Shown here one piece after another: positions 6,028 to 56,445 of a stretch of 64,000 nucleotides of DNA (its first letter is position 1; each line of letters opens with the position of its first letter). The notes under the pieces were generated by a model. It was not told the origin of the DNA, searched no databases, and saw only the letters and a program-made list of their open reading frames with translations. The position numbers and the translations under genes are program-made. This stretch comes from Bacteroidales bacterium (GTDB lineage: Bacteria; Bacteroidota; Bacteroidia; Bacteroidales; WCHB1-69), in contig JAEETJ010000003.1 of assembly GCA_016290295.1 (NCBI GenBank), positions 127,048 through 191,047 of the forward strand, in the 5' to 3' direction.

Positions 6028-6030
6028 CTT

Positions 6031-6065
6031 TTAGGTTTTAGGTTACAGGTATCAGGTTTCAGTAG
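6031..6065. repeat. heptamer array (5 words)
   Basis: TTAGGTT TTAGGTT ACAGGTA TCAGGTT TCAGTAG, directly upstream of the prfB ATG. The reverse complement of 6041..6055 equals 40702..40716. Confidence 0.7.
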
Positions 6066-6212
6066 GGACGCACTGTGTGTGTCTGCAGGGGGAGTTTCGC
6101 TCCGCTCAAGGGGAGTGGACTTCGTCCAAAGGGGAGTCTCGCACTTCGTGCTCGAGGGGAGCTCTAATTCCCCTTCTTGAAGAAGGGGTGGCCGAAGGCC
6201 GGGGTAGTGGTA
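6066..6212. repeat. GC-rich G-tract / mini-hairpin array
   Basis: AGGGGAG-headed units at 6109, 6130 and 6155, plus GGGGGAG at 6088. Hairpins GGAC-TTC-GTCC, GCAC-TTC-GTGC, CCCCTTCTT/AAGAAGGGG and GGCC-GAA-GGCC. Confidence 0.7.
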
Positions 6213-6254
6213 TAGAGTATTAGTTCTCAGTTTTCAGTTTTCAGTTTTCAGTTC
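6213..6254. repeat. heptamer array (6 words) overlapping the recX stop
   Basis: TAGAGTA TTAGTTC TCAGTTT TCAGTTT TCAGTTT TCAGTTC. The recX stop (TGA, 6236..6234) lies inside it. Confidence 0.8.
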
Positions 6255-6686
6255 CACCCCCTTAATCTCTTCGTAAGTAAATCCCTTCGACATCAGGTGT
6301 CGGTAGAGTTTGGTGAGGTTTTCTTGGGTGACAGGTCCGTGGCTTTGCGTCCATTTACGGATGGCTGTCTGTATGTTGTCAGTATATTGTTGAGGGTTGA
6401 TGTCCTTTATATATTTGTCGATGAGGTCTTTGCTGATTCCTTTTTGGAGCAGCCCCAATCTTATTTTTTGCACGCCCCACTGCTTGCTGTTTACTTTGCC
6501 CCGTATGAAACTCTGCACATATCGCTCGTCATTGACAAAACCGTCGTTTTTCAGCAGTTGCAGTAGCTGTTGCGCTTCTTTTTCCTCAACCTGTAGGCTA
6601 CGGAGCTTGGTGAGCACTTCTTGTGTGCAGCGGTCTTGATAGGCACAGTAGCGTTCAAGTTTGGAGAGAATTTCTGTGGCAGTCAT
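6234..6686 (-). CDS. recX: recombination regulator RecX
   Basis: 150 aa. RecX-like helical repeats (YCAYQDRCTQEV..., GFVNDERYVQSFIRGK..WG..KI...L..KGI). Confidence 0.85.
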   Translation of the reverse strand: MTATEILSKLERYCAYQDRCTQEVLTKLRSLQVEEKEAQQLLQLLKNDGFVNDERYVQSFIRGKVNSKQWGVQKIRLGLLQKGISKDLIDKYIKDINPQQYTDNIQTAIRKWTQSHGPVTQENLTKLYRHLMSKGFTYEEIKGVELKTEN

Positions 6687-8927: not shown

Positions 8928-9767
8928 TTAAATTTTTTCTATAATTTTCTTAGCCAAACGGCTTGCTCCGATTCTGAAATATTGTTTATTCAGCCACTTT
9001 TCGCCTAATACATTTTCTAAAATCTTGACATATAGAATGGAAGTTTCCGCATCGGAGATGCCGCCAGCGGGCTTCATACCCACTATCTTACCTGTCTGTT
9101 TGTAGTAATCGTTAATAGCATCCAGCATAATCAAAAATGATTCAGGGGTGGCATTGACGGAAATTTTGCCTGTGGAGGTCTTGATAAAGTCCGCGCCAGC
9201 TTCCATGGCCATCATGGAGGCCGCATAGATGTTGTCGGCAGTTTTCAATTCGCCAGTTTCCAAAATGACCTTCAGATGTGCTTCGCCACAGGCTTTTTTG
9301 ATGGCGACAATCTCGTCAAACACATCCTGATAGTTGCCTTCCAAGAACTTGCCGCGTGAAATGACCATGTCGATTTCGTCGGCACCGGCGTTGACCGCGT
9401 ATTTTACTTCAGCCACCTTGATTTCTATAGGGGACTGTCCGGCGGGGAACGCACCAGCGACAGAGGCTACATGAATGTCCGTGCCCTTCAGCAGCTGCTT
9501 GGCTTGGGCTACAAAAGGCGGATACACGCATACCGCAGCGGTGCTGGGAATATGTCGTGCTTCATCCTTGAAATTGATGGCGGTTTGACACAGTTCGTTG
9601 ATTTTTTGAGCGTTGTCGCTGCCTTCAAGCGTGGTGAGGTCAATGACGCCTAAAACAAAGCGATAGGCTTCTGCTTCGGTAAAATACTTCAATTCCGCCT
9701 CACCATACTGTTTGATGCGCTGAGCGATTTCCTCTTCCTTTCTGGGATAATTCTTGTATGCTACCAT
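8928..9767 (-). CDS. deoC: deoxyribose-phosphate aldolase
   Basis: 279 aa. Motifs AAVCVYP, GADEIDMVI, LKVILETG and the Schiff-base lysine context GADFIKTSTGK. Confidence 0.9.
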   Translation of the reverse strand: MVAYKNYPRKEEEIAQRIKQYGEAELKYFTEAEAYRFVLGVIDLTTLEGSDNAQKINELCQTAINFKDEARHIPSTAAVCVYPPFVAQAKQLLKGTDIHVASVAGAFPAGQSPIEIKVAEVKYAVNAGADEIDMVISRGKFLEGNYQDVFDEIVAIKKACGEAHLKVILETGELKTADNIYAASMMAMEAGADFIKTSTGKISVNATPESFLIMLDAINDYYKQTGKIVGMKPAGGISDAETSILYVKILENVLGEKWLNKQYFRIGASRLAKKIIEKI

Positions 9768-9772
9768 TATAA

Positions 9773-9863
9773 TTGACAGTTAATAATTAATAATTTATAG
9801 TTTTGAATTTTGAATTCTTAATTCTTAATATCTGTAATCTGCTCCCTGTTCCCTGTAACCTCA
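9773..9863. repeat. heptamer array (13 words in one register)
   Basis: TTGACAG TTAATAA TTAATAA TTTATAG TTTTGAA TTTTGAA TTCTTAA TTCTTAA TATCTGT AATCTGC TCCCTGT TCCCTGT AACCTCA. Overlaps the last ~15 codons of the AI-2E transporter gene. Confidence 0.8.
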
Positions 9864-10954
9864 TTTTGCTCGTCATCATCAATGAAGTATTGTCCGAAGA
9901 GTTCCTTGAAGACGATACGCAGGAGAGTGTAAACAGGAACGGCGAAGATCATGCCCAGTACACCACCGATTTGGGAGGCGGCCATGATGACAATGAAGAT
10001 TTCAATGGGGTGTGCCTTCACACTCTTTCCGTAGATGACAGGCTGCAGCACAAAGTTGTCAATCAGCTGTGCTGAGAAGAAGATGGCCACCACCTTTATA
10101 ATATTATACAACACATCTATACCTGCAGGCGACAGAGGAATCATGCTGGTACAGGAAATGATGACATTCAAGCATAATGAAATCAAGGGTCCAAGATAGG
10201 GGATGACATTCAATAAGCCCGACAATACACCTATCAGAGCAGCATCGGGAACTCCTAACAGTTTGCAGGCGATACCATTGATAAGCCCCACAATGCACAT
10301 CTCAATGAGTACTCCTCCGAAGTATCTACCAACCTGTTTGCCCGTGGCTTCCACAATGTTGCTGAAGTTAGGACGCAGTTTGCTGGGGATGAATTTACGT
10401 ATGGTCTTAAGGAAAATACCATCATCTTTTAAGGAGAAAAAAGTGAGGAAAAGGATGGCAAAAACAGCCACAAACACGCTGGCGATGATGCCAACAAGGT
10501 TGCCAAGGATATTCCCGAAATCAAGTCTTTTGACAAGTCCCTGAAGTTGTAGGACCAGTCCCTCGGAAATCTCTGTGGCGGTCACGTCTATGCCTTGGTT
10601 AGAAGCAATATGCTCGAATTTGGAAAGAAAACGGTTGTAACCTTCCACAACCACTTGAGGATCAATGGAGGTGAGATTCTTGACTTCCTGGCTGATGAGA
10701 GGGGTCAGAATGGCAAAAAAGCCATAGAAAAATCCGAAAATAATCACCATGGCTATAATGGCTGCCAAGGGACGGGGGAAGGTGAATTTTTTGATTCTTA
10801 TTTTGCAAAGCAGCTTGACAATGGGGCGTCCTGCTACGGTAAGGGCGAGAGCAACGAGCAAATATATGACAATACTGGAGAAATACCAGCAGAGGAAAGC
10901 CAGTAAAGCTAAAAACAGCAGGATTACTAACATATGGGGAAGGTCGGACTTCAT
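9818..10954 (-). CDS. AI-2E family transporter (PerM/UPF0118)
   Basis: 378 aa, polytopic membrane protein. Family-typical stretch LLGVPDAALIGVLSGLLNVIPYLGPLIS. Confidence 0.85.
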   Translation of the reverse strand: MKSDLPHMLVILLFLALLAFLCWYFSSIVIYLLVALALTVAGRPIVKLLCKIRIKKFTFPRPLAAIIAMVIIFGFFYGFFAILTPLISQEVKNLTSIDPQVVVEGYNRFLSKFEHIASNQGIDVTATEISEGLVLQLQGLVKRLDFGNILGNLVGIIASVFVAVFAILFLTFFSLKDDGIFLKTIRKFIPSKLRPNFSNIVEATGKQVGRYFGGVLIEMCIVGLINGIACKLLGVPDAALIGVLSGLLNVIPYLGPLISLCLNVIISCTSMIPLSPAGIDVLYNIIKVVAIFFSAQLIDNFVLQPVIYGKSVKAHPIEIFIVIMAASQIGGVLGMIFAVPVYTLLRIVFKELFGQYFIDDDEQNEVTGNREQITDIKN

Positions 10955-35123: not shown

Positions 35124-36167
35124 ATGAGAATTATTCTGAAGAATCTGATAATAACGTTGTTATGCTGTCTTGTGGCTGGTTTTTGCATGGCACAAGATAA
35201 CCTGAACCGTGTGGATAAGAACGGAAAAAAGCAAGGTCCGTGGAAAAAATACGAAAAGGGGGTGCTGGTTTATGAGGGACAGTTTGTGAATGACGTGCCC
35301 CAAGGTACTTTCAAATACTATTACCCCAACGGTAAGCTGAAAAGTGTGAGCGAGTTTGTGACGGGCGTGTCCAAGGTAAATGTCACTACCTATCACGAAA
35401 ACGGCAACGTGGCTTCCAAAGGTACTTTTATCAACCAGCAGAAGGATGGCAAGTGGAAGTATTTCAATGATAAAAATGTTCTTCTTTCAGAGGAAAACTA
35501 TAAATTAGGCAAGAAGAATGGTGCATTTGTGACCTATTCGGTGGATGGCTATAAACTGAAAGAAGAAATGTATGCCAATGACTTGCTGAACGGTGAATGC
35601 AAATCCTATTATGAGAAAGAAGAGTTGTTTACGGTTTCCCATTACATTAATGGCAAATTGAATGGTGAAATGGTAACTTATTATCCAGGAAAGATTCCGT
35701 CGCAGAAGGGTGTGTATTACAATGGATTAAAAACAGGTGTGTGGGAGGTTTATGACTCAAAAGGTCAGATGCGTATCACTGAGGAATTCGATAAAAATGG
35801 CAATTTGCTGAAGAAATACATTTATTTGTATGTCAATGAGCATCCCCAGAAAATCAATCAGAATTTGATTGCATATTTCCAGAAAAAGGGGGAAACTAAG
35901 ACTGTGGCTATTTTGAAAAATGGCAATAAGATTGAAGCCACAGAGAGTTTGACGACAATAGTGCAGTGGCTGGATATGTTGGAATTTGTGAAGATTACAC
36001 CGAAGCTGTATGCCGAGATGAGCTGTGTGCGAGGTTACAAGAATATAGATGCGCAAAGTGTGCGTGTGCTGTTGAAACCCGCTTTGGATTACGAGGTGAT
36101 TGCCGAAGGTGAGGATGCCGCTTCTATACGTTCGCTGTTCGCCACAGGAGAGCCGAAAGAGAATTAG
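35124..36167 (+). CDS. MORN-variant repeat protein (YwqK-like), secreted
   Basis: 347 aa, with a signal peptide. Repeated G.....G.W..Y..NG.L units (GKKQGPWKKYEKG, VPQGTFKYYYPNGKL, KDGKWKYFN, LNGECKSYY, LNGEMVTYY, KTGVWEVYD). Confidence 0.75.
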   Translation: MRIILKNLIITLLCCLVAGFCMAQDNLNRVDKNGKKQGPWKKYEKGVLVYEGQFVNDVPQGTFKYYYPNGKLKSVSEFVTGVSKVNVTTYHENGNVASKGTFINQQKDGKWKYFNDKNVLLSEENYKLGKKNGAFVTYSVDGYKLKEEMYANDLLNGECKSYYEKEELFTVSHYINGKLNGEMVTYYPGKIPSQKGVYYNGLKTGVWEVYDSKGQMRITEEFDKNGNLLKKYIYLYVNEHPQKINQNLIAYFQKKGETKTVAILKNGNKIEATESLTTIVQWLDMLEFVKITPKLYAEMSCVRGYKNIDAQSVRVLLKPALDYEVIAEGEDAASIRSLFATGEPKEN

Positions 36168-36198
36168 CAAATTAGTCAATTAGCAAATGTGCAAATTG
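36163..36198. repeat. octamer array
   Basis: ATTAGCAA ATTAGTCA ATTAGCAA ATGTGCAA ATTG. Begins on the stop codon of the MORN gene. Near-identical words occur at 54715..54754. Confidence 0.75.
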
Positions 36199-37345: not shown

Positions 37346-39397
37346 TCACCTCCTTTTACGGCAGAAGTAGTCGCCGATTTTCATCAGCAGGACAGCGTTG
37401 TCGAAAGCTTCACGGCCATAAAAATCCTCTGTGATACAATTTTTTATGAAACGTGATAGTGCAACGTCATAGCAGTTGAAGTGCTGTCCCTTGTACTCAA
37501 AACGCCATGGGAGAAACCATGGGTCCCCGTCTTCGTAATAAAAATTCCTCATCCAACAGGTATCGTTGTTTTGGTTGACAAACTCAATTTTGAACCAATT
37601 CTTCGTTGTGCTTGTAAAACCCTCACCCGTGTTGAGGATGTCGCATAATGTGGCCTTGTCAATATCATCCAGCATATCTGGAATCGAACTATAAAGACTT
37701 TTGTCCTTTTTTTCAATCTTGTTGAAGTCATATTTTCCCAAGTCCAGACGCTTTTGCACTCTGTCCATATAATGCATTTTGTCAATCTTTGTGATGTTAA
37801 AATCTTGTATTTCAATCGTTTTGTCAGGATTGGCATTGGCGTTTTTTAACAATCGGACAAGTTGCGCAACATTCACAGTAATGTCAATCATCGTGTCTGT
37901 TCTCTCTTTAAAACCTCCCTCTTTAGACATCAATGCCTTGTCGAGGAGGGTATCTTGGGCTACATTATATTCAATTTGATGGTTAAAATAGTGAAAACAG
38001 CCTTGGCTGCCAGACGAAATGCTGAATTTCTTAATGGGTACGGCAAGGAAATCACGTAACGGTTCCGAAAGCGTATAGCTTTCAATAGTGTGATCTGGCA
38101 AGGAGTAGCGATGGTTCCGAAGTCCATCCCAAAGAATGGCTACACTGTCGCTTAGTAACTTGATGCCACAGGTCGGGAAGTCCAGTTCCGCCTCACGATA
38201 CCAACGGCGCCCCTTTTTGTCTGCGATATAAAGCTGCTTTTCTTCCACACCCCAGATCAGATGATCCCCGCTTTCCATTAAACAAGGATCCTCTATCGCC
38301 TGATCAGAGGTGTATGGAAAATGGCAAATCAATCCCTTGTGGTTAGCGCGACATACCCGTTTGTTGGCCAGAATCATATATAACGAATTGTTAACAGCTT
38401 TGATGTCAATTGGATATGTGGGGATACGCTTGTCTGTGGGTATCACATATTCCGTTGGTGAAGTGAAAGTCAGCACCCTGAGGCTGTCGTCAACCGCCCA
38501 CAATAGGTTGGTGTTTTTGTCCAGTGTGAAATCATAGATCCGGCCAGGAAACGCTTGCCAGTTAATCTTTTTGCCTGTCGTTGTATAAAAGACCTTGCCA
38601 CACTGTTCTGCAATTAGATAAGATCCCCAAATGAGCACCTTGTTAATTCGTGGCCGATTGTCGAGCTCGCTTGCCACCACTTTCTTCTGGTCTAATGGCG
38701 TGGGAATGCTTCGGGCGGTGCGCCAGTTGTTTTCTGTGATTAGAATCTCGTTTTCATCAGAGCCGATGATGCCGTGAAACGCATCCGCCATATAAAGACC
38801 GTAAATTCTATCCGATTTTTTCAAGGGAATTTTTAACGCCTTGAAATGCTCTCCGAAATCGGTGGAATAGTATATGGTCTTATCAGCTGTGCCGAGCCAG
38901 GCAAACCCATAACTTGATGTAATGGCTGCATAAATCCATCCGTCTCCGCCAATATCTCGCAATTTCCATGTGTGTCCACCGTCGGTAGTGCGATAATACC
39001 CGCTTTTGAGCTTTTGGGGGCCTTCGGGGGATGGTATAGAACCTGTCATGATGGCGGTGTCGGAATTGAAAAAGGAAATGCGGTCAATATAGGGCATGTC
39101 TTTCCATGTAATATCACTCCAGTTGCGCCTTGGGGATGGAACAGGTTGGCCATAATGCCAAGAGGTGATAGGACTGCCGTAATGCCAGTTGGAATCGATG
39201 CTGTTGGTGTAGTATATCTCTCCCGCGGCAGTGGTCAGCCATATCTGCTCGTTCGGCGCGACTGAGATTTCGTTAATTCTCCCGAAAATAATGAGGGGAG
39301 CACGGTAGTCGCGGGTGTCATTTGTGGGATACTCTTGTCCTTGGACGGTGAGCAAGCTCAGCGCAAACAGGAGAAAAAGGACGAGTGACGATTTCAT
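37346..39397 (-). CDS. secreted protein with Asp-box/BNR-like propeller region and unknown C-terminal domain
   Basis: 683 aa from ATG 39397 (MKSSLVLFLLFALSLLTVQG); the -7 box at 39418 lies inside the longer ORF. Asp-box TTDGGHTWKL and a weaker YSTDFGEHF. Confidence 0.6.
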   Translation of the reverse strand: MKSSLVLFLLFALSLLTVQGQEYPTNDTRDYRAPLIIFGRINEISVAPNEQIWLTTAAGEIYYTNSIDSNWHYGSPITSWHYGQPVPSPRRNWSDITWKDMPYIDRISFFNSDTAIMTGSIPSPEGPQKLKSGYYRTTDGGHTWKLRDIGGDGWIYAAITSSYGFAWLGTADKTIYYSTDFGEHFKALKIPLKKSDRIYGLYMADAFHGIIGSDENEILITENNWRTARSIPTPLDQKKVVASELDNRPRINKVLIWGSYLIAEQCGKVFYTTTGKKINWQAFPGRIYDFTLDKNTNLLWAVDDSLRVLTFTSPTEYVIPTDKRIPTYPIDIKAVNNSLYMILANKRVCRANHKGLICHFPYTSDQAIEDPCLMESGDHLIWGVEEKQLYIADKKGRRWYREAELDFPTCGIKLLSDSVAILWDGLRNHRYSLPDHTIESYTLSEPLRDFLAVPIKKFSISSGSQGCFHYFNHQIEYNVAQDTLLDKALMSKEGGFKERTDTMIDITVNVAQLVRLLKNANANPDKTIEIQDFNITKIDKMHYMDRVQKRLDLGKYDFNKIEKKDKSLYSSIPDMLDDIDKATLCDILNTGEGFTSTTKNWFKIEFVNQNNDTCWMRNFYYEDGDPWFLPWRFEYKGQHFNCYDVALSRFIKNCITEDFYGREAFDNAVLLMKIGDYFCRKRR

Positions 39398-39417
39398 GGT
39401 TTTTTCAAATTTGACTG

Positions 39418-39425
39418 CAAAGATA
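39418..39425 (-). promoter_or_regulatory. -7 promoter box (TATCTTTG)
   Basis: Plus strand reads CAAAGATA, 21 nt upstream of ATG 39397. Confidence 0.55.
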
Positions 39426-39517
39426 CTGTTTTTTGTTGAAATGTTGAGTTGTTTGATAGTTGAATTCAGGCCGTAATTTTTTTTGTTAACATCAGCGTGT
39501 AATCCGAAAAAAATGCG

Positions 39518-39525
39518 TAAGTTTG
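39518..39525 (+). promoter_or_regulatory. -7 promoter box (TAAGTTTG)
   Basis: Exact TAnnTTTG, 44 nt upstream of the gcvT ATG at 39569. Confidence 0.55.
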
Positions 39526-39568
39526 CAGTTTGGAACATTTTAAATTTTTAACATTAATACAAAACAAA

Positions 39569-40660
39569 ATGAAACAGACAGTATTCAAAGAAACTCATGA
39601 GAAATTAGGTGCCAAAATGGTTGAATTTGCAGGCTTTTACATGCCCATCCAGTACGAAGGCGTGTCAGCAGAACACCTGCATGTGAGAAGCAAAGTCGGT
39701 GTGTTCGACGTTTCCCACATGGGCGAATTCACCGTGAAAGGTCCCAAAGCTTTAGACCTGCTCCAGTACATTACTTCCAACGACGTGGCCGCTCTCTTCC
39801 CCGGCAAGGTGCAGTATTCCTGCTTCCCCAATGGCAACGGCGGTATCGTTGACGACCTCTTGGTGTACAACATCGCTGAAAACGACTATCTGTTGGTGGT
39901 GAACGCCGCTAATATCGACAAGGACTGGGCTTGGGTAAGCAAACAGAACGAGAAATTCGGTGCTGAAATCGCTAATATCTCCGACAATATCTCACAGTTG
40001 GCCGTTCAGGGTCCTTTGGCACTGAAAGCCATGCAGAAACTGACCGATGCCAATGTCATCGACATGGAATATTATACCACCAAGACTATCACTTTCGCTG
40101 GTATTCCTAATATCATCTTCTCTACCACAGGTTACACAGGTGCCGGTGGTTGCGAGATTTATTTCAAAAACGAGGACGCTCTCAAGGTTTGGGACGCTGT
40201 TTTTGAAGCTGGCAAGGAATTCGACATCAAACCTATCGGTTTGGGTGCCCGCGACACTTTGCGTCTGGAAATGGGCTTCTGCCTCTATGGTCACGAAATC
40301 GACGACACCATCACTCCCGTTGAGGCTGGTTTGGGCTGGATTACCAAATTTGTGGACCACAAGAACTTCATCGACAAAGATTTCATGTTGAATTTGAAAG
40401 CCAACGGCATGAGAAAGAAATTAGCTGGCTTTGAAATGATTGAGCGTGGTATTCCGCGTTTGGAATATGAGGTTTGCGACGCTGAAGGCAACCACATCGG
40501 TATTGTCCGTTCAGGTACTTTCGGACCCTCTATCAACAAATCAGTGGGTACCGCTTGGTTGAAACCCGAATTCGCCAAATCAGGCACGGAAATCTACATC
40601 AAGATCCGTGAGAAACTGGTGAAGGCTGTTACTGTGAAAATGCCGTTTTATAAAGGATAA
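39569..40660 (+). CDS. gcvT: glycine cleavage system aminomethyltransferase GcvT
   Basis: 363 aa from ATG 39569 (MKQTVFKETHEKLGAKMVEFAGFYMPIQY); VGVFDVSHMGEF; family sequence throughout. Confidence 0.95.
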   Translation: MKQTVFKETHEKLGAKMVEFAGFYMPIQYEGVSAEHLHVRSKVGVFDVSHMGEFTVKGPKALDLLQYITSNDVAALFPGKVQYSCFPNGNGGIVDDLLVYNIAENDYLLVVNAANIDKDWAWVSKQNEKFGAEIANISDNISQLAVQGPLALKAMQKLTDANVIDMEYYTTKTITFAGIPNIIFSTTGYTGAGGCEIYFKNEDALKVWDAVFEAGKEFDIKPIGLGARDTLRLEMGFCLYGHEIDDTITPVEAGLGWITKFVDHKNFIDKDFMLNLKANGMRKKLAGFEMIERGIPRLEYEVCDAEGNHIGIVRSGTFGPSINKSVGTAWLKPEFAKSGTEIYIKIREKLVKAVTVKMPFYKG

Positions 40661-40751
40661 AACAGGATTCAGGATTCAGGGGACAGGTGTCAGATTTATT
40701 ACTGATACCTGTAACCTGACACCTGTAACCTGACATCTGATACCTGAAAAT
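40661..40751. repeat. heptamer array (13 words) filling the stop-to-start gap exactly
   Basis: AACAGGA TTCAGGA TTCAGGG GACAGGT GTCAGAT TTATTAC TGATACC TGTAACC TGACACC TGTAACC TGACATC TGATACC TGAAAAT, then the ATG. Confidence 0.85.
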
Positions 40752-41222
40752 ATGTACGACAAACGATTTATGGAGGAAGCCGTTGCCCTGTCCCGGAAAT
40801 GTATCGGGACAGGCAAGGGTGGTCCTTTTGGTGCTGTGGTGGTGAAAGATGGCCAAATTGTGGGCCGCGGCAGTAACAGTGTTACCCTGTTGAACGACCC
40901 CACTGCCCATGCCGAGGTGATGGCTATCAGGGATGCCTGCAAAAACCTGGAATCATTCCAACTGGATGGCTGCGAAATCTACACCAGCTGCGAGCCCTGC
41001 CCCATGTGCTTGGGTGCCATATACTGGGCGCGTCCAGACCGTGTGTATTATGCGGCAGATCGCCAAGATGCTTCAGAAGCTGGTTTCGACGACTCGTTTA
41101 TATATGAGGAACTGGATTTGCCCGCTATGGAGCGGAAAATTGTAGCTGAACAGCACGACCGCGCTATCGCTCAGGAGGTGTTCCAGCAGTGGATACACCT
41201 GGAAAACAAAATTGATTACTAA
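40752..41222 (+). CDS. CDA-fold nucleoside/guanine deaminase
   Basis: 156 aa. Zinc motifs HAE and PCPMC; GuaD-like N-terminus (GGPFGAVVVKDGQIVGRG.N). Confidence 0.85.
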   Translation: MYDKRFMEEAVALSRKCIGTGKGGPFGAVVVKDGQIVGRGSNSVTLLNDPTAHAEVMAIRDACKNLESFQLDGCEIYTSCEPCPMCLGAIYWARPDRVYYAADRQDASEAGFDDSFIYEELDLPAMERKIVAEQHDRAIAQEVFQQWIHLENKIDY

Positions 41223-41225
41223 AAC

Positions 41226-43121
41226 ATGAAGGCCACTCGTCTGCTTATCCTGCTTTTGTTGTTGTGGACTCCCTTTCTGTTGAAAGCGCAGGAAGATGAG
41301 ACCCAGGATGACAGACATTTTCATCAGCATGAGGTGGATTCCGTGATGGCCTTCTCGCCGGATTTTATGCCGGTCTCTTACGATTACATAGAACCCCACT
41401 GGATTAAGCCATTGGTAATGAAACCCGTGGATACTTCAATGGCACAAGTCCATCAATATACCCCTTGGTTGAAAACCCAGAACCTCTGTCAGGATTTGGG
41501 AATCCCCGATCAGGCACACCAGTTTATGAACTTCGATTACAATCGGGATCCTGGTTTTTCCATGATTACCTTGCCTTATCCTTTGTTATGGCAGACACAG
41601 AAAGATGTGAAGTTTTATGATGTAAAGACTTCTTTCACGGATCTTTCTTTTACATACGGAATTGTTGATTTATATGATTTCAACGCCACACACACGCAAT
41701 ATTTCAAAGGTTTGACCGCCGCTTTTGATATGCATGCCTATTCTAATGCGGGGTATTTTTTGAATCAGCAGACGAGGGATATCCGTATCAATGCATTTTT
41801 GAATTATGAGGAACCAGCTGGCATCTATGGCTTTACGGTATCGTATATTTTCAACCGATTGAAAGCACAGGAGAATGGCGGTTTGCAAGATACCTCTTTG
41901 TTTATGCATAGGGCTGCGGATGCTTTGAAGGGATATCCTGTGAAGTCTGAAAATGGTCGTTCCGTCATCATGTCAAATGATTTGCTGTTCCAGCAACATG
42001 TGAATATCATAGATAAAAAGAAGAGATATTATGGCACGATTACCCATAGTTTCCAATTCAAACATTTGAGGACGGATTATTTTGATACAAAATTCGATTC
42101 GACATTTTATCAGCATCATTTCTATTTTTCAACTGATACAACACGGGATACAGTAGCATGCTATAGCCTGATTAATACTATCCAGTGGTCGAATTATAGG
42201 CCTTTGGACACGCTTTCGTCAAAAAAGTATTTTCTCAGGATCGCCGGAGGCTTGACGCATGAGTATGTTTATGCACGAATTCCGTATTATAAGGGGAATA
42301 CGTTCACCCTTTTCGCACGCGTTCATACCCGTTTGTTCGGTGTGATGGATTTGACAGGACGCATAGCGTATTCATTTGGTGGATACAACAATAACGATGT
42401 GGTAGCTGCGGTGGGTGTCGAATGGATGATACAGAAAAAATGGAATCACCGCTTAGGAGGAAATGTCAGTTTCTACCGGAACTCACCGGATTATATCTAT
42501 GATCTTTACTACGGAAACCATAATTTATGGTATCATAAGGATTGGCCGAAGCAGAATACGCTGAAGGTAAATGCTTTCTGGACCATGATGAATTACAAGC
42601 TGGAGTTCAATTATTTTATGTTGCAAAATTTGGTGCGTTTGGACTCCCACTATGAATTGTATATATTGCCGAAGAGTGCTAATGTAATACAGTTCCATCT
42701 GTTTGCCCCTATCAGGGTAAAGGGCTTTGGACTGGATATCAATGCTTATCTGCAGTATTCGACCAGTGTGGCTTTGAATCTTCCTTTGTTCGCTTTCAAA
42801 GCATCCCCTTATTACATTTTCAATGTGTTGCATGGTAAGCTGAAAATACAGATAGGCTGTGATTTGATGTACAATACTTTGTATTTCGCTGATGGGTATG
42901 ACCCTGTTATGCATCAGTTCTATTTCCAAAGAACAATGAGAGTGGGTAACTATGTGTATTGGGATGCCAACTTGACACTTAAAATCAAGCGTATCAGCTT
43001 CTTCTTCAGGGCAGGGCACATTTTGTCGGGTGTAGTAGGGCAGTTCTATTTTCTGACTCCCGATTACCCGGCACAAGGACGAAACTTCCAGCTGGGCATC
43101 AATTGGAAATTCTATGACTAA
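41226..43121 (+). CDS. outer-membrane beta-barrel protein (putative porin family)
   Basis: 631 aa. Signal peptide MKATRLLILLLLLWTPFLLKAQ, Y/G/N/F-rich alternating pattern, terminal strand GINWKFYD. Confidence 0.6.
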   Translation: MKATRLLILLLLLWTPFLLKAQEDETQDDRHFHQHEVDSVMAFSPDFMPVSYDYIEPHWIKPLVMKPVDTSMAQVHQYTPWLKTQNLCQDLGIPDQAHQFMNFDYNRDPGFSMITLPYPLLWQTQKDVKFYDVKTSFTDLSFTYGIVDLYDFNATHTQYFKGLTAAFDMHAYSNAGYFLNQQTRDIRINAFLNYEEPAGIYGFTVSYIFNRLKAQENGGLQDTSLFMHRAADALKGYPVKSENGRSVIMSNDLLFQQHVNIIDKKKRYYGTITHSFQFKHLRTDYFDTKFDSTFYQHHFYFSTDTTRDTVACYSLINTIQWSNYRPLDTLSSKKYFLRIAGGLTHEYVYARIPYYKGNTFTLFARVHTRLFGVMDLTGRIAYSFGGYNNNDVVAAVGVEWMIQKKWNHRLGGNVSFYRNSPDYIYDLYYGNHNLWYHKDWPKQNTLKVNAFWTMMNYKLEFNYFMLQNLVRLDSHYELYILPKSANVIQFHLFAPIRVKGFGLDINAYLQYSTSVALNLPLFAFKASPYYIFNVLHGKLKIQIGCDLMYNTLYFADGYDPVMHQFYFQRTMRVGNYVYWDANLTLKIKRISFFFRAGHILSGVVGQFYFLTPDYPAQGRNFQLGINWKFYD

Positions 43122-43130
43122 CAAAAAAGA

Positions 43131-43256
43131 GATAATAGTTGATAGTTAATAATTAATAGTTGACGAATAATGACTAATAGATAAGGAATAGTATTTGATA
43201 AACAAGGGATTATTTTCCTATTAACTATTAACTGTTAACTATTAACTGTAAATTGC
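43131..43256. repeat. heptamer array (18 words in one register)
   Basis: GATAATA GTTGATA GTTAATA ATTAATA GTTGACG AATAATG ACTAATA GATAAGG AATAGTA TTTGATA AACAAGG GATTATT TTCCTAT TAACTAT TAACTGT TAACTAT TAACTGT AAATTGC. Confidence 0.8.
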
Positions 43257-43261
43257 AAACA

Positions 43262-44635
43262 ATGATAGAATACAGAAAAGAAAAGGATACCATGGGTACG
43301 GTTGAGGTGCCGTCTGACAAGCTCTGGGGGGCACAAACCCAGCGTTCCTACACGAATTTCAAGATCGGCGGGCAACAGATGCCCCTGGAAGTGGTCTATG
43401 CCTTGGCTTACGTGAAAAAGGCTGCAGCATACGCCAATTGTGAGCTTGGGGTACTTCCTGCAGAGAAGAGGGATGCTATTGCCGCTTGCTGTGATGAGAT
43501 AGCGGCTGGCCGGTTGGATGAGCATTTTCCGCTGTGTGTTTGGCAGACTGGTTCGGGTACCCAAACCAATATGAATGTGAATGAGGTGATCGTGAATCGT
43601 TCTGAGCAGAAAAGCAAGGGTATGATCGATGTTTCCAATCGTTTGCTTTCGGCCAATGACGATGTGAACAAGTCACAGTCCACTAACGATGTTTTTCCTA
43701 CAGCCATCAGAATTGCTTCTGCAAAGTTGTTGTTGGAAAAGACAATACCGGCATTAGAGAGCTTGGTTAAGACATATCAAAGTAAAATTGATGAGTTCGG
43801 AAGTATCAAAAAAATTGGAAGAACTCACATGATGGATGCAACGCCACTGACCTTGGGCGAGGAATTGTCGGGACACCAGTCGCAAGTAATGCATGGGGTA
43901 GAGTGCCTGAAAAATGCCCTGAAACATTTGATGGAACTTCCCGTTGGCGGAACTGCGGTGGGCAATGGCTTGAATACGCCCGAAGGCTACGACCGCTTGG
44001 CATTGTCATATATTAACCAGTTCACGGGCATGCAGTTCGTGAATGCTCCCAACAAGTTCGAGGCGATGGCCAGCCACGACAGCATGGTAGAAGTTTCGGG
44101 TGCGTTAAAGCGCTTGGCAGTATCGTTGATGAAGATTGCCAACGATATTCGTCTGTTGTCGTCGGGACCGCGTTGTGGTATCGGTGAGCTGACTATTCCT
44201 GCCAATGAGCCAGGTTCGTCCATTATGCCGGGTAAGGTGAATCCTACCCAGTGCGAGGCCCTGACTATGGTATGCTGTCAGGTGATTGGCAATGATACGG
44301 CTATGACTTGCGGTGGTTTCCAAGGACATCTGGATCTGAATGTTTTCATGCCGTTGATGGCGCAGAATTTGCTGCACTCTGCACGCATTTTGGCAGATGC
44401 GGTGGAATCCTTCAATCAGCATTGCCTGATGGGTATGAAGCCTAATCTGGAAAAAATAGATTATTACCTGAAAAACTCGCTGATGCTGGTAACCAAACTG
44501 AGTCCGACCATCGGCTATTACAATGCGGCGAAAATTGCTCAGCATGCTTTTGAACAGAATATGACCTTGAAGGAATCCGCTATGGATTTGCAACTCTTAT
44601 CTGAAGAAGAATTTGACAAAATTATGAAATTATAA
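43262..44635 (+). CDS. fumC: class II fumarate hydratase
   Basis: 457 aa from ATG 43262 (the ORF-track start at 43253 is TTG). KDTMGTVEVPSDKLWGAQTQRS, WQTGSGTQTNMNVNEV, signature GSSIMPGKVNPTQCEA. Confidence 0.93.
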   Translation: MIEYRKEKDTMGTVEVPSDKLWGAQTQRSYTNFKIGGQQMPLEVVYALAYVKKAAAYANCELGVLPAEKRDAIAACCDEIAAGRLDEHFPLCVWQTGSGTQTNMNVNEVIVNRSEQKSKGMIDVSNRLLSANDDVNKSQSTNDVFPTAIRIASAKLLLEKTIPALESLVKTYQSKIDEFGSIKKIGRTHMMDATPLTLGEELSGHQSQVMHGVECLKNALKHLMELPVGGTAVGNGLNTPEGYDRLALSYINQFTGMQFVNAPNKFEAMASHDSMVEVSGALKRLAVSLMKIANDIRLLSSGPRCGIGELTIPANEPGSSIMPGKVNPTQCEALTMVCCQVIGNDTAMTCGGFQGHLDLNVFMPLMAQNLLHSARILADAVESFNQHCLMGMKPNLEKIDYYLKNSLMLVTKLSPTIGYYNAAKIAQHAFEQNMTLKESAMDLQLLSEEEFDKIMKL

Positions 44636-44647
44636 AAACCATTCATT

Positions 44648-49333: not shown

Positions 49334-49350
49334 TATCTCTATTCTATTAT

Positions 49351-49455
49351 ATTAATTCAAAATTCAAAATCCAAAATTCAATGTTAAATGTTTAGTGTTT
49401 AGAGGTATAAGAGCTTAATTATCAATTATTAATTGTTAACTGTTAACTGTCAACT
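49351..49455. repeat. heptamer array (15 words in one register)
   Basis: ATTAATT CAAAATT CAAAATC CAAAATT CAATGTT AAATGTT TAGTGTT TAGAGGT ATAAGAG CTTAATT ATCAATT ATTAATT GTTAACT GTTAACT GTCAACT. Its end overlaps the TPR gene stop. Confidence 0.85.
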
Positions 49456-52400
49456 ATTCCTCACTATTTTCTGTCTGTTCCGCTCTGTCGAGGGCAGCGA
49501 TCTTGTCTTCCGCCACTTTCTTCAGGTCTTCGCCCTCATAGTTGTCGATGATACTTTGGTAGGTGTAGCGAGCTTGGAAAGCGTTGCCTTTGGCGAGATA
49601 AACATCACCATAGAGAATGAAGGTTGAGGCATACCAATATTCTGATGTATAATCGGATGCCAGAATTTCTTTGATTTGTTTCTCGCAGAGATCTAAATTG
49701 TTATCGTTAAAATGGATGAGAGCCACTAAATAAGCGGCTTCGGCACACTGGTCGTTGTTGCCGTTCTTTGAGAGGCGTGTCAGATATTTGAGAGCATTGG
49801 TATTGTCGCTCAGGGCAATGGCTGATTTGCCGGCAATCATCAGGGCTTCGTTTTGTAGGTCATTGTCATTTTGTCCTGACAGCATAATGTTAGTAGCTGC
49901 ATTGTATGCATCTCTGTATTGGCGCAGCTCGTATGCACAGTGCATGCAACCATTATTGCCATAAATGATGTTGTTGTCGTTAGAGGCGTATTCCACTAAT
50001 TTTTTGAAATAAACCAGTGCGCGGCTGTACTCTTTCTTTCCGTATAGGATGCTGGCAGCTTTGCGGTAGGCCGTTTCGTTGTATTCGGTATTGTAATTGT
50101 TGACCAATCTCTCGAAGGAGGCTAATGCATTGTCATAGTCGCCGGTGCCATATTCGCAATCGCCCTTGCAGTACAGTGCTTTGGCAGCGAACAGACCATT
50201 GGGGAACTGGCGCAGATAATCGTTGTAGGCTTTGATAGCTGCTTCGCAGTCGCCACGCATATATTTGTTGTCGGCAGCCTTGAAGCTGATGGAATCTTGC
50301 TTGTCAGCGGAGATGTTAAGGTTGCGGGTTTTGATGTATGCGAAGAAATCGCTGGTGTTGCCAGTCTCGCTGTAAATGTTTTCCAGGTTGGCCAAGGCGT
50401 CTTTGGCTTCTTGTGAACCGGGATAAGTTTCAAACACATACTTGAAAGTGGAAATAGCCATATCCACATCTTGTGTGTTCAGATACGACTGGGCCAATTT
50501 GTTGTGTGCCTGTCTGATATAGGGACTTTTGGGGTGTTTGAGAATGAAGTTTTTGTATGCCGCAATGGCAGCTCCATATTCATTTTGAGCGTGATAAGTG
50601 GAAGCCAGTTCATATTCCGCATCATCAATATAGCTTGACTTTGGATAACTGCTCATCAGTCGCTCCAAAACATCAATTTTCTTGTTGTAGTCGTTGAGAT
50701 AGCTGTAGCATTTAGCGGTTTGGAAGATGGCGTAGTCGGCGTTTTTCTGTCCTAATTGCTGACATTGCTCATAGTATTTAATGGCCGTTTTCAAGTCTTT
50801 TTGCATATAGTAGCAGTCGGCCAAACGTGCGGTGGCATCCGCTTCAATATCCACATTGTCGCTTTTTTGCAGGTATTTGCGGAAACCTTGGGCAGCTTCT
50901 GAATACTTGTTAAGTTTTAGAGCCGCATAACCGTATGAGTATTGGGCGTTGTTGTAGTTGACATCAGCGGTGGCATTGGAGGCCTTCATATAATTCTGGA
51001 AGGAATAGTAGCTGTCTCTGTATTTTTCGCTGCGGTATTCACACTCGGCTTTCCAATAAAGATTCTCGGTGTTGATGGTCTTGTCCATGGGGTAGGTGAG
51101 TGATTTGTTGAGCATTTTGAGAGCATCCTTATAGTTGCGATTGTTGATCATTTCCAAAGCGCGGAAATGGGTGCAGCGTTGGTAAGCTCTTAACAATGAG
51201 GGACTTTTGATGTCAATCTTTTCCAATGAGTTGATGGCACTTTGGTAGTTTTTGGTGGACATGTAAATGGAGGCTAAGTAGCTGTTGGCTTCCTGTGAAC
51301 GCGAAGAGTAGGGGTATTTGTTGATATAGTCTTCCAAGGCCTTGATGGCGCTGTTGAAAGGACTGGAGGATGTCTCATACTGTAATTTGGCATGATTATA
51401 CAAGGCATCTTCTTGAATATCAGTATTAAAGTTGTATTTTGATGCTTGCAGAAAACTTTGTGAAGCGGTCTGATAGTCCTTCTGCTGTAAGTAGCAGTCG
51501 GCAATCAGATAATAGCTGTTCTGCGTCATCTCATCGGCTGGTTTTTGGCTTGTGGTCTTGGACAGGTATTTGACGGCCTCGTCATACTTTTTGTTTTGAT
51601 AGAAAGTATAACCGATGGCGAAATAGTCGTTGCGTTCAAGCTGCACTTTGTCATTGTTGAGGATAGGTCTGAAAGAAGCCTCGGCATTGCGGAAATCCTT
51701 GAGGTTGTAGAAAGATAATGCCAGTGTGCGGTACAACTCGGGTTGGTTCTTCAGGTTGTTTTCCGTCATGACGGAGGGTGCCATGGCTACAACCTTATCA
51801 TACTGTTCCTGAAGGAAATAGATCTGCATCAAGTATTGTTGCACTTCATCCTTGTATTCGGGAACATTCTGTAATTTCTGGAAATCTTCCAAGGCAGCCT
51901 CGTACTGTTTGTCGGAATAGGCCATGTGAGCCAAATAATACAGGGCTCTGTAGTGATAGGGACCGTTTTCCTCGCTGCTTTGTTTCAGCAAGGCTTTGGC
52001 CTCCGCATATTTGCCAGTGGCAAAATAGCTGTAGCCTTTTTTGAAGCGGAACTCTGCCAGGTCGTCTTTGTTGACTACTCTTTCATCGATTTCATCGAAT
52101 TGTTCCAGCACTTTTTTGTATTGCTTGGTAGAAAAATAATACATGCCCAGGTGATAATGAGCCTGGGGCACAAAGGCGTGGACCGGATATTGGCGGATAA
52201 AGTCGCTGAGCAGGAAAGCGGCATCCTGATTGCTTAGCTTGGCGGCGCACAAACCCAGATAAAAATAGGATTCAGCTTTCAAGTCCTGTTGTTTGTCCTC
52301 GCTGAATTCGTAAACTTGTTTGAAATATTGCTGTGCGGAACCGTATTTCTGTTTCTGGAAAAGTTCCTTGGCTAATTTGTATTCGTATCGCGGCGAGTCA

Positions 52401-52483: not shown

Positions 52484-52598
52484 TATGTTCGTTTTTTTAT
52501 TAATCGATAATAATATTAATTAACGAACAAAAATATGAAATTGGTATACAGCAATCTAATATTCTCTTATAAATTTGTGAACAGCCTATTTTTAATAA

Positions 52599-52773
52599 CA
52601 GTGGTCAGTGGTCAGGATTCAGGGGCCAGGGGGCGGAGATTAGTTGACAATTGACAATTAACAATTAACCTTCTAAACTCAACACGTTAGACATTTGAAT
52701 TTTGAATTCTGAATTCTTAACCTCTAACCCCTAACCCCTAATTACTGTAACCTAAAACCTGTAACCTGTTAAC
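52599..52773. repeat. heptamer array (25 words, 175 nt, one register)
   Basis: Runs from CAGTGGT CAGTGGT CAGGATT CAGGGGC CAGGGGG ... to TGTAACC TAAAACC TGTAACC TGTTAAC (full parse in findings). The last word contains the ABC-F stop codon. Confidence 0.9.
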
Positions 52774-54707: not shown

Positions 54708-54714
54708 CGAGAAA

Positions 54715-54754
54715 ATTAGCAAATTAGCAAATTCGTAAATGTGACAATGCGAAA
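54715..54754. repeat. octamer array
   Basis: ATTAGCAA ATTAGCAA ATTCGTAA ATGTGACA ATGCGAAA. Same word family as 36163..36198. Confidence 0.75.
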
Positions 54755-54883: not shown

Positions 54884-54960
54884 TGGTGACCCATGCAGGA
54901 TTCAAACCTGCAACCTTTTGATCCGTAGTCAAATACTCTATTCAGTTGAGCTAATGGGCC
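54884..54960 (-). tRNA. tRNA-Arg (anticodon ACG), CCA encoded
   Basis: Minus strand GGCCCAT-TA-GCTC..GAGT-A-TTTGA-CTACGGA-TCAAA-AGGTT-GCAGG-TTTGAAT-CCTGC-ATGGGTC-A-CCA. 77 nt, cloverleaf checked by hand. Confidence 0.92.
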
Positions 54961-54977
54961 GTTTGAATTTGTGACTG

Positions 54978-54985
54978 CAAAAATA
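54978..54985 (-). promoter_or_regulatory. -7 promoter box (TATTTTTG)
   Basis: Plus strand reads CAAAAATA, 18 nt upstream of the tRNA 5' end. Confidence 0.55.
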
Positions 54986-55057
54986 CATAAAAATTGAATA
55001 CAATATCATTCTTCAAGAAAAAAATGCGAAAAAAATTTTTTCTATTGAAAAATTGTG

Positions 55058-55065
55058 TATTTTTG
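55058..55065 (+). promoter_or_regulatory. -7 promoter box (TATTTTTG)
   Basis: Exact TAnnTTTG, 38 nt upstream of the rpsP ATG. Confidence 0.55.
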
Positions 55066-55102
55066 CACCCTCAAATTTTAACCGTATTAAATATTAAAAG
55101 TT

Positions 55103-55734: not shown

Positions 55735-55769
55735 AACTGAAAGTTGAAAACTGAAAACAGAAAGTTATA
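55735..55769. repeat. heptamer array (5 words) upstream of rimM
   Basis: AACTGAA AGTTGAA AACTGAA AACAGAA AGTTATA. Confidence 0.7.
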
Positions 55770-55796: not shown

Positions 55797-56318
55797 ATGA
55801 TGAAAAACGAATATTTTTATTTGGGACATATCACCAAACCCTTTGGTATCAAGGGACAGCTATGCTGCTACTTCGACACGGACGAACCGGAAAAGTATGT
55901 GAATCTGGATGCGGTGTTCTTGGATTTGGACGGCGAAAAACTGCCCTATCTGATAGAAGATATCCAGTATCGGGGTGCCAATACCTTTGTGATTAAGTTC
56001 CAAGATGTGGATGAAGAAGAGGCCAAAGGCTTGGTCAAAGCGGAAATGTATCTCCCCTTGTCAGAACTTCCTCCCTTGACTGGCAACAAGTTCTATTTTC
56101 ACGAAGTTATTGGTTTTCATGTGATTGATGAAGAAAAAGGAGACATCGGAGTCTGTCAGGATTTTATCGATATAAGCCATAATCCCATCATGCAAATTGA
56201 CCATGACGGAAAGGAGATACTGATTCCGGCTATCGACGAGGTTTTCAAGAATGTTGACCGTGAGAACCATCAGATACATATTGCTGCTCCAGAGGGGTTG
56301 ATAGATGTTTATTTGTGA
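55797..56318 (+). CDS. rimM: ribosome maturation factor RimM
   Basis: 173 aa. YLGHITKPFGIKGQL N-terminal barrel and a PRC-barrel-like C-terminal half. Classical rpsP-rimM linkage. Confidence 0.9.
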   Translation: MMKNEYFYLGHITKPFGIKGQLCCYFDTDEPEKYVNLDAVFLDLDGEKLPYLIEDIQYRGANTFVIKFQDVDEEEAKGLVKAEMYLPLSELPPLTGNKFYFHEVIGFHVIDEEKGDIGVCQDFIDISHNPIMQIDHDGKEILIPAIDEVFKNVDRENHQIHIAAPEGLIDVYL

Positions 56319-56353
56319 AGTTGAAAACTGAAAACTGAAAGTTGAAAATTTGG
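56319..56353. repeat. heptamer array (5 words) immediately after the rimM stop
   Basis: AGTTGAA AACTGAA AACTGAA AGTTGAA AATTTGG. Same words as 55735..55769 and the reverse complement of the recX array words. Confidence 0.75.
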
Positions 56354-56408
56354 GATGAAAGTGGGGATGTAAGCTCTTAACTTTTATTTGAATTTTTTAT
56401 CAAAAAAA

Positions 56409-56443
56409 GCATGCGAAAAAATGTGTTTCGTATGCTTTTTTTT
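56409..56443 (+). terminator. rho-independent terminator after rimM
   Basis: GCATGCGAAA-N7-TTTCGTATGC (one G-T pair) followed by T8. Confidence 0.7.
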
Positions 56444-56445
56444 AT

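Follow-up and report, generated by a model that had tools for sequence, protein, structure and literature searches.

An inverted pair of heptanucleotide arrays as a probable intercistronic stem-loop between gcvT and a deaminase gene in an uncultured Bacteroidales lineage

Introduction

Tandem arrays of 7-nt units (heptamers) have been described in Xanthomonas, in filamentous cyanobacteria, in giant sulfur bacteria and in a few Bacteroidetes, with no mechanism or function established. Here, we analyze a 64,000-nt stretch of a Bacteroidales genome (GCA_016290295.1, contig JAEETJ010000003.1; the whole stretch is hereafter called the window), and in particular the 91-nt spacer between gcvT and a deaminase gene, which consists of two facing heptamer arrays. 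The genomes nearest to the source contig are metagenome-assembled genomes from rumen and gut, and this uncultured lineage adds a dense, sequence-diverse case to those already known.

The GGGAATC arrays of Xanthomonas are intergenic, lie mostly between co-oriented open reading frames (ORFs) and are mostly transcribed (Rehm et al. 2015, PMC4692102). Each genome carries 70-75 convergent array pairs that could form stem-loops or cruciforms, and the arrays vary extensively in length and sequence among close relatives (PMC4692102). In Beggiatoaceae, some Cyanobacteria and five Bacteroidetes including Paludibacter, direct TAACTGA repeats occupy intergenic DNA in forward orientation and end a few nucleotides before start codons (MacGregor 2015, PMC4679880). 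The STRR and Nostoc heptamers of cyanobacteria form several intergenic families, often near start codons, with effects on reporter expression and no mechanism (bioRxiv 10.1101/2022.06.06.494920).

Our preferred reading, to which we assign a probability of roughly 0.6, is that the gcvT-deaminase spacer is an inverted heptanucleotide array pair of a lineage-wide, slippage-born class and forms a probable intercistronic stem-loop shaped by G-poor leaders. Related genomes provide a natural allele series at this one operon junction, with 13-nt ancestral-like spacers, three CAGG-type hairpins and two GACG-type hairpins. Two further handles are a clean two-unit slippage step nearby and an arm polarity, aligned with gene direction, that connects the arrays with the leaders of Bacteroidota, which are G-poor and lack Shine-Dalgarno sequences. 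Should the hairpins act on mRNA processing or on translation, they would represent a widespread and cheaply evolvable means of operon tuning in abundant gut bacteria; if they have no effect, they would illustrate clearly how the constraints on leaders mold DNA that arose by slippage. Annotators should not take spacers of this kind for promoters, terminators or length-coded signals.

The gcvT-deaminase spacer is an inverted pair of heptamer arrays

The spacer occupies positions 40661-40751 of the + strand, between the gcvT stop codon (TAA, 40658-40660) and the deaminase ATG at 40752. An earlier note on this DNA had described it as 91 nt of 13 heptamers, and these coordinates are correct. Bases 7 nt apart match at 54 of 84 positions, compared to 20.9 ± 4.0 (maximum 39) in 20,000 dinucleotide shuffles (z = 8.2). 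Tandem Repeats Finder (TRF) reports one array at 40663-40680 (2.6 copies, 100% matches) and another at 40702-40749 (6.9 copies). At period 14 the right half-array has 3.3 copies with 87% matches, and three copies of the 14-mer CTGACACCTGTAAC are its better description. With three or more head-to-tail 7-nt units, the spacer qualifies as a heptanucleotide tandem array.

The 5' arm (40663-40696, +) begins 2 nt past the stop codon and is built from G-rich CAGGnnn heptamers (CAGGATT twice, CAGGGGA, CAGGTGT and CAGATT). An apical loop region of 16 nt (40697-40712) separates it from the 3' arm (40713-40746), which is C-rich and G-poor, ends 5 nt before the ATG and carries nnnCCTG heptamers with alternating CTGACAC and CTGTAAC words. 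The 91 nt therefore divide into 2 + 34 + 16 + 34 + 5, and the repeats do not share one register: CCTG words are shifted by 3 relative to CAGG words.

Inverted-repeat searches, together with RNA and DNA folding, bear out the idea that the CAGG and CCTG halves are mirror images that fold as one hairpin. As previously noticed, ACAGGTGTCAG (40683-40693) and CTGACACCTGT (40716-40726) are exact reverse complements of each other. The complete inverted repeat (40663-40696 / 40713-40746) has 34-nt arms that are 76% complementary around the 16-nt loop, and it is the second longest in the window. The minimum free energy of the spacer RNA is -41.3 kcal/mol, compared to -20.4 ± 3.0 for shuffled sequences (z = -7.05); the DNA fold reaches -20.4 (z = -5.3). 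The predicted stem consists of 4-5 bp helices, with an 11-bp run at the center and 2 x 2 internal loops every 7 nt. As in the Xanthomonas inverted pairs, arrays of the same unit lie close together in opposite orientation and are capable of forming a stem-loop. A search of the window against Rfam 15 at the gathering score found no match in the spacer, the sole hit being tRNA-Arg at 54887-54960.

Orthologous junctions carry unrelated arrays with the same fold

Orthologous junctions were recovered by exact-protein look-ups in other assemblies, and the resulting loci are identified below by L numbers. The L082 spacer is 91 nt long and identical to that of the window. L083 has an 89-nt spacer that retains the CAGG / CCTG architecture with only 65% identity to the window spacer, although its flanking genes are 98.3-98.5% identical to the window at the DNA level and its GcvT protein is identical. 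The L165 spacer is 87 nt and CAGG-type, next to a deaminase that is 98% identical. These three CAGG-type alleles (91, 89 and 87 nt) differ by substitutions as well as length. Five other loci (L084, L002, L003, L166 and L167) carry 124-nt spacers made of unrelated, GACG-type units (AAGGCGT facing ACGTCTT) with two small inner hairpins, and the 149-nt GACG-type spacer of L001 has the outer arms of the 124-nt alleles around a different interior. L013, L168 and L169, whose deaminases are 72-84% identical, have spacers of 12-13 nt with no array. The 89- and 124-type alleles are also carried in DNA runs of other samples. A search of metagenome contigs with the deaminase returned no close relatives (best 77% identity) and no extra orthologous spacers.

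Every long allele folds as a single spacer-spanning hairpin, with z from -3.3 to -7. Arms taken from the same type pair at -31 to -45 kcal/mol, compared to -15 to -21 kcal/mol for arms combined across types; the CAGG-type and GACG-type alleles are thus two independent solutions to one fold. Within the CAGG-type, alleles cross-pair as well as they self-pair, and only the contrast between CAGG and GACG is informative about arm covariation. The co-variation of GGGG and CCCC in L083 is only suggestive.

Judged from these sequences, the junction measures 12-13 nt in related species and has expanded to 87-149 nt in one sub-lineage. L084 is a mosaic, with a gcvT that is 97.5% identical to the window at the DNA level and an L002-like deaminase that is 83.9% identical, which indicates that part of the allele turnover is due to recombination with a breakpoint at or near the spacer.

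The allele series also bears on the idea that the array is a length-counted, phase-locked spacer in which the 13 x 7 fit is functional. The 91 nt equal 13 x 7, and the porin/fumC spacer further along the gene row measures 140 nt, or 20 x 7. The earlier note had suggested checking whether orthologous spacers have lengths divisible by 7, and had named arbitrary length and sequence among them as grounds for refutation; the other alleles are 89, 87, 124, 149, 12 and 13 nt long, which refutes length counting. Because the orthologous lengths leave remainders of 0, 5, 3, 5, 2, 5 and 6 after division by 7, and come with two unrelated unit types, the exact fit is a coincidence. Moreover, the five most periodic spacers of the window have remainders of 1, 0, 0, 1 and 5, and the 91 nt are split into arms, loop and flanks without a single register. 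We give practically no credence to a length-counted device, nor to its minor variant, an inserted REP- or MITE-like mobile element, against which stands the lack of any conserved element sequence.

The spacer is one member of a lineage-wide class

The array is not gcvT-specific, and represents one instance of an intergenic class found throughout the lineage. Period 7 yields 63 high-scoring search windows, compared to 0-1 at the other periods from 3 to 13 and at 15, and 7 at the multiple 14 (same threshold). Elsewhere in the intergenic DNA of the window, tandem heptamers occur at 6020-6063, 6206-6264, 9767-9856, 43116-43265, 49347-49466, 52597-52760, 55735-55763 and 56309-56350. For a clade survey, 38 loci of relatives (GcvT identity of 78% or more) were added to the window, and arrays were seen at many loci of such relatives. 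Arrays of period 7 occupy 7.1% of the intergenic sequence in this sample but 0.17% of the coding sequence, an excess that is almost entirely intergenic. Of 134 gaps between co-directional genes, 37 contain an array; of 71 gaps between convergent or divergent genes, 9 do (Fisher p = 0.014). Relatives with GcvT 72% identical or less (Lentimicrobiaceae and others) are mostly without arrays, and only L043 and L055 show one. Mirrored arrays in other species can reach 210-250 nt: in L018 (1118-1369), about 18 TGACGTG-type units face about 17 ACGTCAA-type units, and L047 carries a similar array at 2130-2340.

The units themselves are diverse. The 59 array segments hold 48 different dominant unit classes; arrays are conserved in period and not in sequence. 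We considered a common CAG/CTG anchor in all units and rejected it in view of this diverse vocabulary. The earlier note had pointed to a 15-mer, CTGATACCTGTAACC, shared with the region upstream of prfB. The second copy is real: CTGATACCTGTAACC lies at 40702 (+) and, as its reverse complement, at 6041-6055, with no third copy in the window. Its distance to the start codon is 35 nt for the deaminase gene and 13 nt for prfB. It does not represent a specific common signal; the two leaders draw on the same heptamer words (CTGATAC, CTGTAAC), in arrays both of which abut a start codon. The prfB-leader array (6028-6063, - strand), which contains the second copy, reads in gene sense CTGAAAC, CTGATAC, CTGTAAC, CTAAAAC and CTAAAAG, followed directly by ATG.

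This placement raises the possibility that an RNA-binding regulator of translation (S1, cold-shock or CsrA-like) recognizes the heptamers as periodic sites, as has been proposed for the TAACTGA repeats of Beggiatoaceae (PMC4679880). The 3' arm of the spacer abuts the start codon in forward orientation, as the prfB array does, and its CTGATAC and CTGTAAC words differ from CTGATAA, a rotation of TAACTGA, by one or two changes; the placement, too, matches that report. Heptamer repeats near start codons in Nostoc alter reporter expression (bioRxiv 10.1101/2022.06.06.494920). On the other hand, no single binding specificity fits 48 unit classes without a common core motif, alleles of the same junction use unrelated units, and the window has one TAACTGA with no tandem copy. 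We therefore regard a bound regulator as very unlikely.

Three more arrays in the window illustrate the range of the class. The largest cluster (52597-52760, -) lies between an ABC-F gene and a TPR gene and contains several drifting heptamer units. The spacer at 49334-49453 (-), between two co-directional genes, is filled by an array with a lag-7 match of 0.66 and forms no strong hairpin. A 50-nt spacer upstream of a DeoC-family gene (9768-9817, -) is likewise array-filled, with a lag-7 match of 0.72. This array continues (9818-9856) into the last codons of an AI-2E-family transporter ORF (9818-10954, -), such that the C-terminus of the protein is encoded by repeat units.

Arm polarity follows gene direction

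Mirrored pairs are polarized. Read in gene sense, 12 of the 13 co-directional spacers with a well-scoring mirrored pair have their G-rich arm on the side of the upstream stop codon and their C-rich arm on the side of the downstream start codon (p = 0.0034). With orthologous duplicates removed, the count is 10 of 11 (p = 0.012). The polarity tracks gene direction on both strands of the window.

Bacteroidota leaders lack Shine-Dalgarno sequences. The 30 nt that precede start codons in array-free spacers are A-rich, with 13.7% G and a GC skew of -0.12, in keeping with such leaders, and the 30 nt that follow stop codons show no skew (+0.01). Because the leaders of this clade are A-rich and G-poor, an arm that abuts a start codon would have to be the G-poor one. 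Taken together, the leader rule and the arm polarity indicate that the requirements of the downstream gene act at least as a filter on the arrays.

The array probably lies within an operon transcript

The genes on either side of the spacer are those named in the earlier note: gcvT, a deaminase gene and a porin-type gene. The first, gcvT (39569-40660, +), encodes a glycine cleavage T protein of 363 aa from its ATG (TIGR00528, 378.8 bits; NCBIfam and Pfam), and the gene is called from the identical start in L081. The second (40752-41222, +) encodes a 156-aa nucleoside deaminase of the cytidine/deoxycytidylate deaminase family (CDA family, PF00383), whose relatives carry differing source names (nucleoside deaminase, guanine deaminase or TadA). 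It is followed by a gene for a Porin_10 family outer-membrane protein (41226-43121, +) and by fumC (43262-44635, +), which encodes a class II fumarate hydratase.

A candidate Bacteroidetes -7 promoter box, TAAGTTTG, lies at 39518-39525 (+), 44 nt upstream of the gcvT ATG. The sequence around this box is conserved in L084, and its upstream part is conserved in L002. The spacer holds no TAnnTTTG box, as had been claimed for it; the + strand has no match between 39525 and 50260, where the next one is found. A scan of 39300-43400 for a stem plus T-run found no terminator-like site in the spacer, whose stem is followed by AAAATATG. The combination of no promoter box, no canonical terminator and a junction of only 12-13 nt in relatives makes it likely that gcvT, deaminase, porin and fumC are co-transcribed, which supports the earlier view of the deaminase and porin-like genes.

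A very stable stem that begins just past a stop codon could also be a terminator or attenuator acting after gcvT, with the deaminase transcribed from its own start. Intrinsic terminators have stable stem-loops in the same position, and metatranscriptome contigs run from gcvT into the 5' arm, both for the window allele (40609-40702, one mismatch) and for one GACG-type allele, but never cross the array. These RNA data are assembled contigs that could include DNA, and de Bruijn assemblers break at inverted repeats in any case. Unlike intrinsic terminators, the spacer stem is much longer, is periodically mismatched and has no U-tract after it, and no -7 box lies downstream to restart transcription. 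The short operon junction of the relatives also argues against a terminator, as does the use elsewhere in this genome of a stem flanked by A- and T-runs. That element (56399-56445), a canonical two-way terminator-like hairpin downstream of a gene ending at 56318, has an A-run, 20-nt arms that are 90% complementary and a T-run. We consider termination within the spacer highly improbable. The spacer is neither a promoter nor a canonical terminator, and it is no length-counted device.

With neither a promoter box nor a canonical terminator, the array would be transcribed inside a gcvT-deaminase-porin-fumC mRNA, and the transcript would form an imperfect stem-loop with 34-bp arms and 2 x 2 internal loops every 7 nt. 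G-poor leaders would force the G-rich arm to the 5' side, hence the polarity in 12 of 13 pairs. Most likely, such a stem-loop would be a barrier to 3' exonucleases or a site for a double-strand RNase, thereby uncoupling the decay of the cistrons, and it may to some extent damp or couple translation of the deaminase. Any such effect would be secondary, the array having arisen through slippage.

Array turnover and the case for a neutral origin

A second mirrored hairpin fills the porin/fumC spacer (43122-43261, +), with arms at 43127-43161 (TAATAGT type) and 43219-43247 (ACTATTA type). The folding energy of this hairpin is -34 kcal/mol (z = -6). This spacer is 140 nt in the window and 126 nt in L002, where the 3' arm is 14 nt, exactly two units, shorter; apart from two base substitutions, the two spacers are otherwise the same. 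The clean two-unit difference indicates slipped-strand replication. L003, L084 and L001 use other units in the same spacer. On shorter time scales the arrays are stable. The 285-nt array-rich spacer at 52484-52768 is identical in L170, and the 9768-9817 array is identical in nine near-clonal assemblies, which differ from the window by 0-4 bases over 3 kb. We therefore rejected hypermutability on clonal time scales, and the arrays do not behave as rapid switches.

A neutral origin without function is a serious rival to our interpretation, albeit a less likely one. In this account, the arrays are selfish or neutral simple-sequence DNA that a polymerase makes by slipping on 7-nt units, the mirrored arms arise through intrastrand template switching (fold-back copying), and the hairpin has no role. 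Selection would merely remove the versions that harm neighboring genes, for example those that create G-rich leaders.

Several observations weigh against the stem-loop reading, favor the neutral one, or both. The hairpin is dispensable, because relatives manage with spacers of 12-13 nt at this junction. Only about one third of the array-bearing co-directional gaps hold mirrored pairs, and about two thirds are not mirrored. Array sequence is unconserved, as the number of unit classes attests. The antisense strand of the spacer folds as well as the sense strand (-40.1 compared to -41.3), so RNA is not favored over DNA, and mismatches across the 13 mirrored arrays show no strand asymmetry, with 12 of the G-U type and 8 of the A-C type (p = 0.5). 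Across 37 array spacers the sense strand does fold better than the antisense strand (Wilcoxon p = 0.004), but we do not rely on this result, because strands rich in G+U fold better anyway and the advantage may be mere composition. Accessibility of the deaminase start region is 0.52, in the middle of the range for genes of the window, and a strong translational block of this start is accordingly unsupported. None of the metatranscriptome contigs spans the hairpin, and, as described above, the array at 9768-9817 has not changed among near-clonal assemblies. The pre-existing rule of G-poor leaders can by itself explain the polarity. Finally, many bacteria have heptamers as their most frequent long simple repeats, for which an origin by polymerase slippage has been proposed, according to Mrazek 2007 as cited in PMC4679880 and PMC4692102.

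Other observations are harder to reconcile with a hairpin that has no role. Every long allele of the junction forms a spacer-spanning hairpin, and does so with two unrelated unit types. Arrays are enriched between co-directional genes, and a stem of -41 kcal/mol in an mRNA would hardly be without effect. We favor a probable intercistronic stem-loop of slippage origin over a neutral by-product.

A bolder extension of the stem-loop reading holds that sequence-agnostic, direction-polarized hairpins are evolvable tuners at dozens of operon junctions. Slippage by 7 or 14 nt would make the stem longer or shorter and so reset the stability of an mRNA segment or the coupling of downstream translation. 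Selection or a dedicated mechanism of copying would maintain the complementarity of the arms, and a factor that measures 7 nt is conceivable. We regard this proposal as speculative and improbable.

Comparison with described repeat families

The inverted GGGAATC arrays of Xanthomonas, the cyanobacterial STRRs and the TAACTGA repeats are the nearest described analogues. The arrays resemble the Xanthomonas GGGAATC arrays in being intergenic heptamers with a co-directional bias, inverted pairs and strain variation. The Xanthomonas arrays have one G-rich consensus unit with G-quadruplex potential in a gammaproteobacterium of 65% GC. The arrays described here, in contrast, comprise dozens of unit classes in a Bacteroidales genome of 44% GC, and their arms are polarized by gene direction. 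The window contains no GGGAATC tandem, and the spacer has one GGGG run.

The 3'-arm units are near-variants of CTGATAA and in this respect resemble the TAACTGA repeats, although the window contains a single TAACTGA and no doublet. In Maribeggiatoa, only one inverted repeat occurs among 170 TAACTGA sets, whereas mirrored pairs are common here and no single unit prevails. The STRR and Nostoc repeats belong to another phylum and have other units; STRR1-3 and GGGGATT are not tandem in the window. Inverted pairs are reported to be few in Nostoc, compared to about one third of array-bearing spacers here.

A functional analogue is the enterobacterial REP/BIME family. These short palindromes are found in operons and after genes, where their transcripts form stem-loops that shield the upstream mRNA against 3' exonucleases and thereby determine how strongly the cistrons are expressed relative to one another. 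They form a conserved family that is spread by the RAYT transposase and has no 7-nt periodicity. Unlike REPs, the arrays studied here have no conserved sequence, with 48 dominant units in 59 segments and unrelated units at the same site. Since the known units are not repeated in the window, Rfam gives no match to the spacer and there is no REP-like conserved sequence, the spacer belongs to the broad class of heptamer arrays that lie between genes and include inverted pairs, and to no named sequence family.

A second small-repeat family is nested in the heptamer arrays and consists of GGGGAG-plus-hairpin modules. Between two heptamer arrays, the recX/prfB spacer (6089-6155, read on the + strand) contains three tandem modules of 21-25 nt, each with GGGGAGT and then a differing short hairpin; the modules begin at 6089, 6110 and 6131, 21 nt apart in both steps. 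A like module (GGGGAGTCTC plus hairpin) fills the interior of the L001 gcvT/deaminase spacer (L001:7140-7215), in the opposite orientation relative to the flanking genes. In Nostoc, small hairpin repeats of 21-27 nt are reportedly nested in heptamer arrays (Elhai et al. 2008), and the modules at 6089-6155 and in L001 resemble these repeats.

Other features of the window

Tandem arrays with a period of 8 are also present in intergenic DNA, at 36162-36197, 54713-54733 and 44618-44637, with the units AATTAGCA / AAATTAGC, and AAAATTAT. In place of the spacer that holds the first of these, L001 and L002 have wholly different sequences, with CTGAAAA repeats in that of L002.

Upstream of gcvT lies a divergent gene (37346-39538, -) for a 730-aa BNR/sortilin-like protein, with 30 nt between the two start codons. 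This gene is present in L083 and L082 and absent from L001, L002, L003 and L084, which have approximately 50-160 nt of other sequence in its place.

The prfB gene (4944-6027, -), with its start ATG at 6027, is split over two frames, and the ORF at 4944-5726 matches residues 98-353 of release factor 2 (RF2). This layout is the usual arrangement for the programmed +1 frameshift of release factor 2.

We rejected the notion that the region from 57 to 64 kb is poor in ORFs. A giant, stop-free + strand ORF of at least 2,434 codons runs from about 56699 past the end of the window (64000), and the short minus-strand ORFs listed there are its shadows. The gene for tRNA-Arg(ACG) (54884-54960, -) adjoins the longest inverted repeat of the window, an imperfect repeat with 43-nt arms at 54961-55003 and 55040-55082.

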